DNA from: Eledone cirrhosa | Lineage: Eukaryota | DNA length: 64,000 nucleotides | NCBI GenBank assembly: GCA_964016885.1 | Contig: OZ024741.1 | Coordinates: 171,058,001 to 171,122,000, forward strand | Direction: 5' to 3' | In this document: positions 20,924 through 38,660 of the stretch, piece after piece | How the letters are laid out: each line of letters begins with the position of its first letter | Position numbering within the stretch: the stretch's first letter is position 1 | The notes under the pieces: generated by a model | Database searches by the model: none | What the model saw: only the letters and a program-made list of their open reading frames with translations | Told to the model about the DNA's origin: nothing | Position numbers and translations under genes: made by a program

Positions 20924-21131
20924 CAGATAGGGTGTGGTAAAAGACCAGGTGGACTATAACCAACCAGAGTACTGGATACTTGGTGTGGTAGAGTGAGTAA
21001 TATGAAAAGATTCAGGAACCCGACGGCTAAGCTCCTGTCGCTTCGACAGCTAGATCCGAATGTTCGAATGTTCAGATCTAGCTGCCGAAACCGCCAGAGC
21101 TCAGCCGTCGGATTCCTGAGTCTTTTCATAT
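20924..21131 (-). repeat. Fold-back insertion (family X): ~130-bp imperfect palindrome plus ~75-nt tail
   Basis: Arms at 21000-21058 and 21075-21131. Homologous to 21911-22081 and 38465-38660. Confidence 0.85.
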
Positions 21132-21910
21132 ATATGCATATATATATATATAGATATGTGTGTGTGGGGAATTTACTGGAGGCAGAGGGCATTGGAAGGG
21201 GGTTCAGACTTAGGTAGTAACAACAAATTACTGTACTAATTTACGCAGGAAGGTCTACGTGATTCATATAGTGTAATCGTTATTAGGTTAAATATATGCT
21301 AGGTAGCTTACCATAACACTGCTAAACTATCCATTTTTTTGTCGTTAAGTATTTAGTACATTGATTTCGGTTAGGAAGACGGGGGAATTAGGGGCGGCTG
21401 TCAAACTTTATCGATGTAGCATGACTACATTCTCTAAATATTTATATTCTAATTATTTATAAAATCATAGCAACTGAAATTGATTACGTCGAAGATTGGA
21501 ATCTTATTCTACACATACGTATTCAAAAAGGGAGCACAGATTTGTCTTTCCAGTCTCAGAGAATCTCTACATCATCTACAGTCATTGCACAGTTTTAAAT
21601 ATTATAAAATAACGATATAATTTTGATGTGCCTACACATGAAAAGATATTTCCTTAATAAATTCAAAGAACTCCTCCTCCGACGCATCGCTAACAATAAT
21701 AATCTACAACTCTTACACCAAATAGAAATATTCATATTACTACTTATTACAATGCACAGAAGGAAGAATATATTTAACAGTGCGTATTTTAACAAATGCA
21801 GATATACATACACACACACACACATATATATATATATATATATATATATACATATATATATACCTATATATATATATATATATATATATATATATATATA
21901 TATATATATA

Positions 21911-22081
21911 TAGGAACGAATAGGACCCCGACGGCTGATTCTGGACGGAATTAGCCGTCGAAACGGCTTGAGCTCAGCCGTCGGGATCCTACTCGTTCCT
22001 ATTACCCACTCTACTACCCTAAGTATTGAGTACTTTGGTGCGTTATGGTCCATCTGCTTCCTTACCACATTTCCTTCGTTA
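21911..22081 (+). repeat. Fold-back insertion (family X) in (TA)n
   Basis: taggaacga.tagga.cccgacggctga pairs with tcagccgtcgggatcctactcgttccta. The tail contains cactc..gagtact. Confidence 0.85.
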
Positions 22082-22859
22082 TATATATATATATATATAT
22101 ATATATATATATATTTATATATATATATATATATATATATATATATATATATATATATATATATATATATATATATATATATATATATATAAATATACGT
22201 GTACATACTTATATTTAAGTAACAGCCGTACTAAGAGTGGGAAATGAAATTTCGTTTCATTTTTTCCGTTTATATATATATATATATATACTTTTATATG
22301 GCTTTATTATCAACTCATTTAAACACACACACATATATATATATATATATATACATATATATATATATATATATATATATATATATATATATATATATAT
22401 ATATATATATATATATATATATACATATATATATATATATATGTGTGTGTGTGTGTGTGGTGGTGCATCATTGTATGTGCGTGGTGGTGAATGTGTTTGC
22501 TTGTGTGTTTGTGTGTGTGTGTGTAAAACTAATTTCCCGGAGGACATGGAAAGGAAATCACGTATAAGCAGTAACATGAGATTATTACCAATACTAATTT
22601 TCGAAGCACACTCTTCACGATTCAGATCGTGTATCGGCAAAGAGATTAAACACATGCTTGACAGCTAAACATAGATGTGTGGGTGAAATTAACTATGTCT
22701 ATTTAATGAAATATTTGAAAGGTAGTTTCGGTCAGGAAGAATTGCGCAGCTTCACTTCTGCCAGATTTATTTAACGGTCTTGCATCGTGAGATTTTTCAT
22801 ACGATTTTTCATACAACAGAATAATTATGGACAAGTTGATAACGTTTGATATTGTTTAC

Positions 22860-23114
22860 AACCTGTTCCCAAACAGACCTATTATATTAAATCTTTGTTG
22901 GGTTTTTGCAATAAACAAATATCATTATTTCTGAAGACAGCATATATATGTGTAGGTATGTATATTCCCTCTGATAGTTTGTAAAAATGTTACATAGATC
23001 TATATGATATACATACCAACATACACATATATATCCTAGAAACGATTGTAAAATTATGAATTTTTTAATATAAAGAACTGTTTCTTTGTTTTTATTCATT
23101 ATTTTTATTAATTT
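22860..23114 (+). mobile_element. PLE pLTR fragment (family Y), tail-less, ending in (TA)n
   Basis: Reverse-complement homolog of 26369-26622 and direct homolog of 58735-58915. Confidence 0.8.
22927..23054 (+). ncRNA. Hammerhead-like motif with ~101-nt extended stem II
   Basis: attt CTGAAGA [atatatatgtgta ggtatgtatat..atatacatacc aaca tacacatatatat] GAAAC GATT GTA aaat. Confidence 0.6.
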
Positions 23115-23144
23115 ATATATATATATATATATATATATATATAT

Positions 23145-23408
23145 TTTTATTTTATAGAAGGAGCTTCTACAGGACTAGTACTGTTTCATTCAGATGAAAT
23201 CTTCAGGAAGCTGGGTGTCATATTAAGTTCTGGTATTTTAATATAAATACCAGAACTTAATATGACACCCAGCTTCCTGAAGATTTCATCTGACTGAAAC
23301 AGTACTAGTCCTGTAGAAGCTCCTTCTATAAAATAAAATTTTTTTACTCTGCCATGTATTGAGTACCTTACTTACTGTGGTTATCCCTGACTCAACCCGG
23401 GACCTACG
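23145..23408 (+). repeat. Fold-back insertion: ~94-bp arms plus ~70-nt tail, with a hammerhead-like core
   Basis: Arms at 23145-23238 and 23244-23338. CTGAAGA..GAAAC at 23277-23300. The tail tactc..gagtacc is homologous to 32125-32190. Confidence 0.9.
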
Positions 23409-23425
23409 TATATATATATATATAT

Positions 23426-35553: not shown

Positions 35554-36200
35554 TATCAACTAGAAATTGATTGACATAGATACATATATCTATAATAAAC
35601 ATATGAAACAATCACAGGGAATAATTTGTAAAAGTGTGTAAGCACACATAGCTATGTAGGTAACTAATTAAAGTTTAACTAGAACTTTAAAAATAGATAC
35701 CTTATAAATGGATTGATCTTCCTTGTATATATTTCATTAAAGAAAAATATTTCACCATCAATCTTTCGGTTAACCACAGTAGCCAAATTCCGGATTTGTA
35801 ATAAGGAAGAAGTCTTAACTATCTGTGTTTACACAGCAAATCCAAATCTGCGAATGGCTAGCAGCACGTGTTGCACTTATCAAAAATACAGACATTGTAC
35901 CAGCTTCAACCCAGTGGCGTGAATAAAGATATCAACAACTAGAAATAGCAGTCGAGTCCTTTCAACTGAGTTAGCTCAACAATTAAGGGGCCTTATATAT
36001 ATATTCAAAATTAAATTAAATTAATTTAAGAGTGTCATGTCAGAGAGACATGCACCATATCCACTATATCAATTTCTAGTTGATATAAAATGCTCGGATC
36101 TATTGATTGGAATCTTGGAGCATATTCTACAGTGGATATGGCGCATGTCTCTCTCTCTGACATGACACCGTTAAATTAATTTAATTTAATTTTTAATATA
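35554..36200. repeat. Compound fold-back: tail-less arm at 35554, tail at 36090-36200, inverted tail copy at 36001-36065
   Basis: tatcaactagaaattgat (35554) matches atcaatttctagttgata (36068). 36001-36065 pairs with 36130-36200. tgctc..gagca hairpin at 36091-36122. Confidence 0.8.
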
Positions 36201-36205
36201 TATAT

Positions 36206-36502
36206 ATGCACGCCTTCCGCTGCACCTCCTCCAACCTAGTCAATGGACTTCGCTGCACGAGGTATAGCGCAACCTACGTCGGACAGACTGGACGTCGCCT
36301 GGCATGCCGTTTTACCGAACACCTCCGGGATATTCGTCTCGGTGGTAGTTCCGCCATCGCCCACCACTTTGGCTCCCCTGGACATTCAGCGCACCACCTC
36401 ACAGTCTGTGGCCTACTCCAACGCCACGTTACACCCGCCACCCTCCTCAGGTCGAACAACGCACCATCTTCACCCTACAGACCCACACTCCCCGCGGCCT
36501 GA
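36206..36502 (+). CDS. GIY-YIG endonuclease fragment
   Basis: YVGQTGR.L..RF.EH motif. Confidence 0.78.
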   Translation: MHAFRCTSSNLVNGLRCTRYSATYVGQTGRRLACRFTEHLRDIRLGGSSAIAHHFGSPGHSAHHLTVCGLLQRHVTPATLLRSNNAPSSPYRPTLPAA

Positions 36503-37920
36503 ACTCCCCACCCCTATTCCTTTAGCCTTCGACCGCCCTGTCCCCCCTCCACACATATCCCCCACTAACACCACTAACACACTCCTCCTTTTCACCGCCC
36601 ACCCCACAACTAACAATACTAACACCCCCACCCCCGACCACCTCCCCCAACTAACAATACTAACATCCTTTCTTCCTCCCCCGTTACCCCCTATCACGCA
36701 CACACACACCGGTACATATATACACACATTCACACTAACCACGCACCCTACTACCACCACTAACCTTCACCCACACATCCACTCCCACCAAACCACAACT
36801 AATACCACTAACATCCCCCCGACCCCACGCACACGAACACACACACACCCACACTCACTTACACCACCCACTCTACACACCCTACTACCACTGACCCCCA
36901 CTAACACACCCACATTCAACCCTTTCCCCACCACAGTATACCAACGCACACTAACACCCCCTTCACCACACACACATTCAAACACGCACACACACCAGTA
37001 CACCACACTCCCTCCAGCGTCCCCCACACCTCTCTCCCTCTCCCCGCTCCACCCACACCCCTTCACACACACACACATCTCACTAACACCTCTACTAATA
37101 CACACACCTCCCTTCGCACGACCCCCTCCCCACTCCACCTTTCACACCTACCCATCCTCTCCCCCGTCCACCGCACCTCCGCACACACTGACACACAGAC
37201 TTTCTCCCCCTGCCATTCTCTCCTACTGCTGCTATGCCCTGACCCTCTGACCACTTCCTGTTTGCGCGCGCACCCCACATCTCCCCTCTTCCAACCAACC
37301 CAACCACGGATTACACACATTGGACCTCGCTCCCACGAATCAACTCCATCACAAGTAACATATCCGGCACCCCAACACACCCTCTACGGAACTACCTTAG
37401 GAACTTACCCACGGACATACACTCACAGAAATGTTTTTTCCCACACGCCACCTACATCCACAACACGTATAAAAACCACACACACGGGCGTACCCCCAGA
37501 TATTTACACACGCAGCCTCCGGAATCCTCTCCCACCTCCCCCACCTCTCTGACCCCTCCCCATCCACACACGCACACACACAGTGACCTACACCCCACAC
37601 ACACCTTTTCCTGAACATGGAACCCCGTTCTTCCCCCAACTCTCACATTCACATACACACACACACAAAACACCTTCCGCCTTCACCGCTCGGACACCCC
37701 GCATCCCTCTCCCCGCTCCACCACCCCCCTAAACGCCCCACACCCTTCCACCACTTGTTTATCTTCATGTTTATTTTTATTTTTATTATTATTTTTTCAT
37801 ATTTTTTTCATATTTATTTTCATTTGTACCACTTCCACCGTTTCCTCTCACCCCCTCTTTTCTAAATGTCCCTCCCCCACTCCCCTACACACCCTTGGAA
37901 CTCTCTTCCCACACACTTTT

Positions 37921-37949
37921 CGCCTGAAGAAGGGCTTATGCCCGAAACG
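37921..37949 (+). ncRNA. Hammerhead-like core (stem III/I disrupted by a poly-C run)
   Basis: CTGAAGA a GGGC ttat GCCC GAAAC. Confidence 0.55.
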
Positions 37950-38464
37950 CCCCCCCCCCCCACACACACTCTCAAGAGCCTGAAACTAATAAACCTTTGT
38001 TCGTACTGTCTCTCCGTTTTGTTCCCGTTCCATTTTTCACTATATATATATATATATTTATATATATATATATATATATGTCTGCTACGTTAGAGTTGAT
38101 GTATTTATCTTTTTCGTATGAAATATATATTACAGATGTCAGACAATATAGCAGACTTTTGAGACATAAGACAGAAGCCATCACTAAACAGAATTCTTGA
38201 ATCAACATTAATGTGTGTCACGTGAAAAAGTTACATGCGTACCTACGGCTATGTTGAAATCAAATAGCTTAATAAAGAACTCAATACACATACACACAAA
38301 CATGCATACACACATACACACAAACATACATACACACAAACACACACACGCACACACACACACATATATATATATATGTGTGTGTATATATTCAAATATA
38401 CGTAGACATATACATATATATATTCCCACAAAAACGCATACACACACACACATATAGATATATA

Positions 38465-38660
38465 TAACGAAGAAGTTGTGGTAAGGAACCAGATGGACCA
38501 TAACGCACCAGAGTACTCAATACTTAGGGTATTAGAGTGGGTATTAAGAAAATGTATGACCCCGACGGCAGAGCTCAAGCCGTTTCGACGGCTATTTCTG
38601 GGTCCAGAAATAGCCGTCGAAACGGCTTGAGCTCTGCCGTCAGGGTCATACATTTTCCTA
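38465..38660 (-). repeat. Fold-back insertion (family X)
   Basis: Near-perfect palindrome at 38543-38660 centred at ~38602. The tail at 38465-38542 carries cactc..gagtact on the minus strand. Confidence 0.9.

Follow-up and report, generated by a model that had tools for sequence, protein, structure and literature searches.

The absence of a hammerhead core from the short mirror-image stubs of a repeat designated family X in Eledone cirrhosa is likely explained by two DNA copies that run off an RNA starting inside the ribozyme, and not by fold-back, as judged from comparison of the copies at the sequence level. The window, the whole stretch of 64,000 nucleotides analyzed here, contains three family X palindromes, as a sequence-only reading of this DNA had described, with axes near 21065, near 21947, and at 38601/38602. 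Their parts are as follows.

20924..21060, minus strand: tail-bearing arm of copy 1 (subfamily X2), 5' end near +3, numbered from the A of TYAGT
21061..21069, no strand: copy 1 junction insert, resembling neighboring arm sequence and not the native stem II loop
21070..21129, plus strand: tail-less arm of copy 1, spanning +2 to priming site 1, with GAAA at 21087-90, GTC at 21107-09
21911..21946, minus strand: copy 2 (subfamily X1b) tail-less arm, extending to +2 and carrying a 23-nt internal deletion
21948..22001, plus strand: copy 2 hammerhead 3' half, starting at +7, with the stem II 3' strand, GAAA (21960-63), stem III, GTC (21980-82), and the stem I 3' strand
after 21982, plus strand: copy 2 cleavage position, following the GTC
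about 22000-01, plus strand: copy 2 priming site 1, at the 3' end of the hammerhead half
22002..22081, plus strand: copy 2 tail, 80 nt, ending at priming site 2 and followed by (TA)n
38465..38601, minus strand: copy 3 (subfamily X1a) tail-bearing arm, tail at 38465-38544, 5' end at +4
38602..38660, plus strand: tail-less arm of copy 3, spanning +2 to site 1, with GAAA at 38619-22, GTC at 38639-41

The segment 21952-21985 reads, as had been claimed, as a hammerhead 3' half with GAAA and a GTC triplet. Mapping the axes onto the ribozyme structure places all three inside the long native stem II. The earlier reading had put the center of symmetry in the hairpin immediately 5' of GAAA; the location in stem II stands, but that hairpin is the 3' strand of stem II present twice, with the native 5' strand and loop missing. 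Neither the stem I 5' strand nor a core was found in the three stubs, which thus lack the complete core of a type I hammerhead. No core lies upstream of GAAA in any of them, as reported, although the missing motif is YTGANAA rather than the proposed CTGANGA. In copy 2, the 23-nt deletion in the left arm also removes GAAA and stem III and falls between AGCCGTC direct repeats. Copy 1 belongs to a divergent subfamily, X2.

Family X represents one end, comprising hammerhead and tail, of an autonomous Penelope-like element (PLE) of Hydra type inserted in (TA)n. In intact elements the sequence of the copy 2 tail continues into the leader of an open reading frame whose ATG lies ∼99 nt beyond the tail. 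The predicted protein, P0001, carries reverse transcriptase (RT) and a GIY-YIG-type C terminus, motifs identified by eye; Pfam returned no match for it. The single ORF, RT, C-terminal GIY-YIG, partial-tandem pLTR, inverted 5'-truncated copy, and tail are those of an EN+ PLE. Hydra is a clade of C-terminal EN+ PLEs (Craig et al. 2021, PMC8557442), and as the available portions of that paper describe it, family X shares its DKT motif, CxCX5C linker, lack of CCHH, CxxC and CxH near the C terminus, (TA)n target, hammerhead, inverted 5'-truncated copy, and one-sided tail. It differs in having RWR at the position of the Hydra RWK (in P0001 and in leader copies), a unit of ∼3.5 kb where most Hydra elements are <3 kb, a tail of 80 nt instead of 30 to 40, a U3-A8 core, a ∼60-nt stem II, and most arms ending at one site within the ribozyme. 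A non-LTR retrozyme, made of tandem noncoding monomers with complete hammerheads, was rejected: the stubs are head to head, coreless, and continuous with a coding element. Family X is also present in contigs of four runs of unrecorded kind, none of which covers the whole locus.

Intact copies carry the entire ribozyme. Non-palindromic copies had been predicted to show stem I and CTGANGA upstream; stem I and a core are there, but CTGANGA before stem II gave no matches, because the family X core is a U3-A8 variant, YTGANAA (5,266 matches genome-wide). It corresponds to the covariant UUGANAA form of CUGANGA, with a C3-A8 mismatch in 30 of the first 100 matches. The upstream sequence came from loci found with a tail-continuation pattern, which missed the real leader by not allowing T there. 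The 40 matches to CTGANGA N5-30 GAAAC were rejected as native cores, the 30 inspected being junction artifacts or joins to other families. Stems I, II, and III, with GAAA and NUH, were aligned in 34 sequences, where 87.6% of cells were paired compared to 32 to 46% when slid, and four stem II pairs vary on both sides; a shuffle test of this pairing is inflated by related sequences. Native stem II has 9 to 10 bp. The active fold is not the energy minimum (minimum-free-energy folds favor alternative hairpins, z of −0.6 to −1.7), and Rfam matched no hammerhead family in the window and six loci. The U3-A8 minimal hammerheads of the Schistosoma PLE Cercyon (Cervera and de la Peña 2014, PMC4209133), in the available portions of that study, likewise show U3-A8 covariation, unpaired nucleotides at the stem II 5' end, and a pLTR location; family X differs in its 5-bp stem III, two-part stem I, and far longer stem II. 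With a 5-bp stem III, its sequence is likely to be competent for cleavage as a monomer.

Short palindromes are numerous, with at least 13,928 exact matches to an X1 pattern genome-wide and none to the reversed pattern, an abundance that chance could not approach. Arm 5' ends are most frequent at the A/G of TYAGT, an Initiator-like motif within stem II. By subfamily-matched parsing, which replaced a first histogram inflated by resemblance to the partner arm, 79 of 230 arms end at +1/+2, 38 at −1 to −6, and 2 at −16, and 111 are trimmed shorter; part of this sample was restricted to centers of ≤30 nt. Excluding loci from a query-biased search, 52 of 170 arms end at +1/+2. The edge is soft, 35 of the 170 matching to −1 to −4, in part through resemblance to the partner arm. 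It recurs in X2, and all three subfamilies (X1a, X1b, and X2) retain TYAGT; since TTAG is constrained by apical-stem pairing, this retention does not count as separate evidence of an Initiator. A TATA-like tract lies near −30 in X1 but not in X2, and an RGWYV-type DPE was not seen at +28. The base 5' of +1 was G in 9, C in 10, and A in 2 cases, with no clear excess of the G expected from a cap.

One tailed and one tail-less arm make up 111 of 115 palindromes, with ends mostly 40 and 120 nt past GAAA. Arms of one palindrome differ at 2.9 of 42 nt, compared to 7.4 between loci, and belong to the same subfamily in 84 of 85 palindromes (one unassigned). Such agreement also fits single-cDNA models or later homogenization. 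Leader-bearing copies cross the hot spot in 19 of 20 cases, compared to 10 of 54 unselected arms (P = 1.5e−9) and 6 of 17 in a matched group (P = 2e−4), where the 20 copies come from one search, mostly of one subfamily, and the 17 arms give a local estimate. The single exception, L276, has a coreless downstream copy and ends at +2, as the run-off model predicted.

A minor class of 270 loci is centered on the GUC cleavage site. Among the first 50, both arms end exactly at the site with a non-native insert in 22, and in 12 of these the insert is a single A or T. Single-nucleotide inserts were C/G versus A/T in 4 versus 1 cases at the main site and 1 versus 12 at the cleavage site (P = 0.008), a hint only from a post hoc comparison of small numbers with L252 and L077 dropped. 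The class provides indirect evidence that a U3-A8 PLE hammerhead may cleave itself in vivo.

We consider it probable that each stub consists of two run-off cDNAs, primed 80 nt apart on one RNA that starts inside stem II and end-joined head to head. The RNA 5' end would be fixed inside stem II, probably by Pol II initiation at the A of TYAGT. Both target strands would prime, at two fixed positions (sites 1 and 2) on the same RNA, the second RT displacing the first cDNA, and end joining of the two products would create the palindrome. An mRNA starting at TYAGT would hold only the back half of the ribozyme and would therefore be unable to cut off its own cap. An intact 3' ribozyme would sever the downstream priming sites from it, and with those sites lost only stubs would be produced. 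Long copies would derive from an RNA with the full ribozyme, either read-through or circular, and cleaved linear RNA would give the class centered on GUC.

More tentatively, a promoter within the hammerhead may make two RNAs: a capped half-ribozyme mRNA, from which the 3' ribozyme removes the priming sites, and a full-ribozyme, probably circular, template for transposition, with the tens of thousands of stubs as strong-stop-like by-products.

Two run-off cDNAs would also be expected if their fixed end were set by a nuclease cutting beside the stem II apical loop, or by RT stopping on a protein-bound conformer that only some RNAs adopt. An edge several nucleotides wide, located within the apical hairpin or immediately 3' of it and with no clear cap-G signature, suits a cut or stop, but it coincides, in three subfamilies with differing apical pairing, with a YR start in TYAGT, is crossed by long cDNAs in the 19 of 20 copies above, and lies beyond the stronger proximal stem, which RT would already have melted; we regard this origin of the end as unlikely. 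We give still less weight to a single run-off cDNA that folds back by microhomology, its second strand forming the other arm and an endonuclease trimming at site 1, in the spirit of an earlier proposal (PMC3846280). It would account for arms of the same subfamily with common private variants and for the frequent 1-nt microhomology (25 of 115 junctions). Against it, 32 of 75 junctions leave fewer than 3 nt for a loop (25 once 7 inflated parses are dropped), 12 of them being blunt; family X is joined head to head with another family, Z, at L031, L045, and L052; and both RT start sites were observed in vitro for another PLE, according to the available portions of PMC11167929.

The sequence-only reading had proposed that stem II of the ribozyme itself acts as a template-switch hotspot, where nascent cDNA snaps back or two cDNAs anneal. 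Two cDNAs are probably involved, the axes do fall in stem II, and a native 9- to 10-bp stem exists, yet the rest is unsupported by the fold-back product, loop length, and long copies. A product retaining the native 5' strand and loop matched once, in a mutated ordinary palindrome, against the 13,928 palindromes; for X1, which the pattern covered, stem II fold-back is largely refuted. Long cDNAs traverse the site, family Y seldom stops there, and we think this mechanism very improbable. Equally improbable is a single master element, palindromic and MITE-like, from which whole units were copied. Uniform outer ends and very high copy number would suit it, but centers vary by locus, the tail occurs on either side, and the arms are continuous with the PLE ORF; junction heterogeneity rules out such a unit.

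The tail-bearing arm at 61828-61917, offered as a fourth family X case, had no BLAST match to family X and was rejected as such. It belongs to a second hammerhead family.

61826..62063, no strand: family Y palindrome, canonical CTGACGA core on the plus arm

Among the family Y arms seen, 24 of 28 extend beyond the core and just 2 end in stem II, so the short arm of this palindrome, which ends there, is rare for its family.

A close parallel is PAc, the Poseidon element of Anolis carolinensis (Frangieh et al. 2024, PMC11167929), whose tail is delimited by two internal RT start sites and in which both strands of AT-rich targets are cut and extended. Family X shares the two start sites defining the tail, the AT-rich target, and the placement of the ribozyme immediately upstream of those sites. 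The PAc ORF opens in stem II, unlike the family X ATG beyond the tail, and no PAc reads ended at the cleavage site, where 270 family X insertions are centered. Drosophila virilis Penelope has an internal, TATA-less Inr/DPE promoter (Schostak et al. 2008, PMC2377424) and, as we propose for family X, starts inside the pLTR at an Initiator. Its start lies upstream of an intron whose end meets helix I and therefore, from the available portions of PMC2377424 and PMC4209133, upstream of the ribozyme, whereas the family X start would lie inside it. A 5' ribozyme downstream of the start renders the RNA untranslatable (PMC12029980). Our limited literature search, largely outside subscription papers, found no paper describing a PLE whose start site lies within its hammerhead.

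In LTR retrotransposons, priming near the RNA 5' end yields minus-strand strong-stop DNA, a short run-off cDNA of fixed length. The stubs would resemble it as short run-off cDNAs but would be primed by nicked genomic DNA and inserted directly as dead ends, with no tRNA primer and no integrase.

Family X bears on how PLEs acquire inverted ends and tails and on what their hammerhead is for. Self-priming was proposed for the ends (PMC3846280), with later steps left unvalidated in the available portions of PMC11167929; thousands of independent junctions can tell the models apart and weigh against fold-back. The layout and the U3-A8 core are already published, so the value of family X lies in testability and not in a new kind of element: it allows a predicted start site, a cleavage site that is used, and two priming sites to be placed at exact positions. 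If the promoter does lie inside the hammerhead and makes both RNAs, the stubs would show, to the base, where the mRNA begins, where the ribozyme cuts, and where RT starts at each of its two sites.

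BLAST found only three family X copies in the window, and all three are palindromes, as the sequence-only reading had it. Each is surrounded by (TA)n; one arm stops at a TA ∼40 nt past the hammerhead GAAA, and the other carries an extra tail of 80 nt. These copies and the other repeats in the window are as follows.

Axis near 21065: family X palindrome, copy 1
Axis near 21947: family X palindrome, copy 2
Axis at 38601/02: family X palindrome, copy 3
21911-21946: 23-nt deletion between AGCCGTC repeats that takes out GAAA and stem III, recurring at L159, L186, and L024 elsewhere in the genome
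7804-13975: a further Penelope-like element (PLE), present as a 2.6-kb inverted pair with frames of RT and GIY-YIG-like type plus a segment rich in Asn
41611-45135, minus strand: unbroken 1174-aa frame that resembles a non-LTR element encoding RT plus a restriction-like endonuclease; a partial copy lies inverted at 1-1057
27737-28442 and 20781-20921: pieces of proteins from other Hydra-like PLEs, resembling P0001, the ORF protein of X; one adjoins copy 1
33012-35476, 61826-62063, 46452, 6686, and 7320: more hammerhead-bearing families with canonical cores (family Y and others)

The arm at 61828-61917, previously counted as a fourth X example, gave no BLAST match to X and belongs to the separate hammerhead family Y. 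Since 24/28 sampled Y arms run past the core (20 exact and 4 mutated, judged by eye) and 2/28 end in stem II, this example cannot be generalized.

A CTGANGA core had been expected upstream of the stem, and a genome pattern search returned 0 matches. Nonpalindromic X copies do carry stem I and a core at that position, followed by a long stem II, but the core is YTGANAA (5,266 genome matches) rather than CTGANGA. X shares this U3-A8 swap with the published Schistosoma PLE hammerheads (PMC4209133). Stems I to III are backed by alignment (87.6% of cells paired; 34 of 54 diverse intact copies), with both-sided changes at four stem II pairs in the same 34 sequences. MFE folding did not recover the active X fold, and an Rfam search gave no match for the X hammerhead. 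The AGCCGTC repeat also permits a different hairpin, in competition with the active structure. C3 lies opposite A8 in 30 of the first 100 intact X cores listed (e.g., L181 and L167); this mismatch is predicted to impair cleavage, yet the C3 form is multicopy.

Upstream of the ribozyme lie a ∼1.2-kb 3′ UTR and an ORF whose motifs are of RT and GIY-YIG type; downstream, the tail continues into a leader, with an ATG ∼99 nt further. Family X is therefore the pLTR junction of a PLE. In its motifs, the protein agrees with the Hydra clade, with RWR where that clade has RWK (PMC8557442). The same source describes an inverted copy with a one-sided tail as a PLE layout; the layout, the tail, the U3-A8 core, and the clade were already known.

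In the 3.0-Gb animal assembly, a pattern search with centers of ≤30 nt found 13,928 exact palindromes of subfamily X1. The X1 stem III pattern matched 29,746 times on the forward strand, which, if doubled, suggests ∼60,000 arms on both strands, and the pattern for subfamily X2 matched 4,995 times. One abundant X1b haplotype (e.g., L060, L172, and L182) contributed 39 arms of stubs (short palindromic insertions without the ribozyme core) and 0 core-bearing arms to our sample; its source may be a master lacking the core, or stubs that propagate themselves.

Arm ends were numbered from the A of TYAGT (+1), 18 nt before GAAA and 41 nt before the cleavage site, in a sample that excluded loci found through selective searches and censored exact-palindrome loci at 30-nt centers. 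Among 230 ends (115 pairs), 79 fell at +1/+2, 38 at −1 to −6, and 2 at −16; the other 111 lay further downstream, the pattern expected from trimming. Without query-biased loci, 52/170 were at +1/+2 and 35/170 at −1 to −4, and X2 arms have their edge at the same place. The dominant 5′ end lies inside stem II and is distinct from the cleavage site. Exactly one tail was present in 111/115 pairs, and both arms almost always belonged to the same subfamily. The 115 junctions were blunt (40), had 1-nt microhomology (25), or contained inserts often copied from nearby sequence, all typical of end joining.

A second class (270 loci) is centered on the GUC site, where evenly spread ends would both fall in ∼1/66 of cases. 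A manual tally of the first 50 listed gave 15 flush loci (ambiguous with CG microhomology), 12 with a single A/T, 10 with other nonnative inserts, 2 ambiguous, and 11 extending further.

Self-priming is an earlier explanation of PLE junction palindromes (PMC3846280), and the sequence-only reading placed snap-back or annealing of cDNA at stem II. Between its arms, such a product must still hold the native 5′ strand and loop; the corresponding X1 pattern matched a single locus, an ordinary palindrome with mutations. Fold-back of any sort requires that 3 nt or more be left for the loop. The loop was shorter in 32 of 75 parsed junctions (25 once 7 parses with inflated microhomology were dropped), 12 of the 75 being blunt; 10 of the 85 pairs were too trimmed and were skipped. 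A stop or template-switch hotspot at stem II should halt long cDNAs as well. Instead, 19/20 leader-preceding copies (20 regions picked from 40 matches of a single search, mostly one subfamily) go on through the core, versus 10/54 unselected arms from C1:1-5.87 Mb (P = 1.5e−9) and 6/17 arms of a matched haplotype group (P = 2e−4). In a pattern-biased set, X arms stand head to head with family Z, another repeat family (L031, L045, and L052). At L032, L039, L044, and L047, the 5′ edge of X stubs is joined to pieces of other repeat families.

We propose that an endonuclease nicks (TA)n on both strands and that two sites 80 nt apart would be primed, site 1 by one target strand and site 2 by the other. 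Extension of both strands from two start sites is described for PAc (PMC11167929). Both primers would share one RNA, given that pairs carry a single tail and that their arms match, and both cDNAs would reach its 5′ end by run-off before being joined. The simplest reading of that end, because TYAGT holds a YR start, is a Pol II start, for which the internal promoter of Penelope offers a precedent (PMC2377424). The soft edge and the pairing of TTAG in the apical stem count against a start site. In a cap-G test, the nucleotide preceding +1 was G in 9 cases, C in 10, and A in 2, without a clear G excess. Our literature search turned up no PLE whose start site had been placed within its hammerhead.

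An mRNA starting inside stem II would be unable to cleave off its own cap; a plant retrozyme RNA that starts upstream of its ribozyme does so (PMC12029980). The intact 3′ ribozyme of such an mRNA would cut away the priming sites that lie downstream, and only stubs would result. One case, L276, is as predicted: its downstream copy is core-less, with 980 nt copied and an end at +2. Long partial tandems would require an RNA holding the whole ribozyme. Private variants common to the 5′, 3′, and inverted copies of L268, and to the 5′ and 3′ copies of L269 and L280, are compatible with a circular RNA or with a source that was homogeneous.
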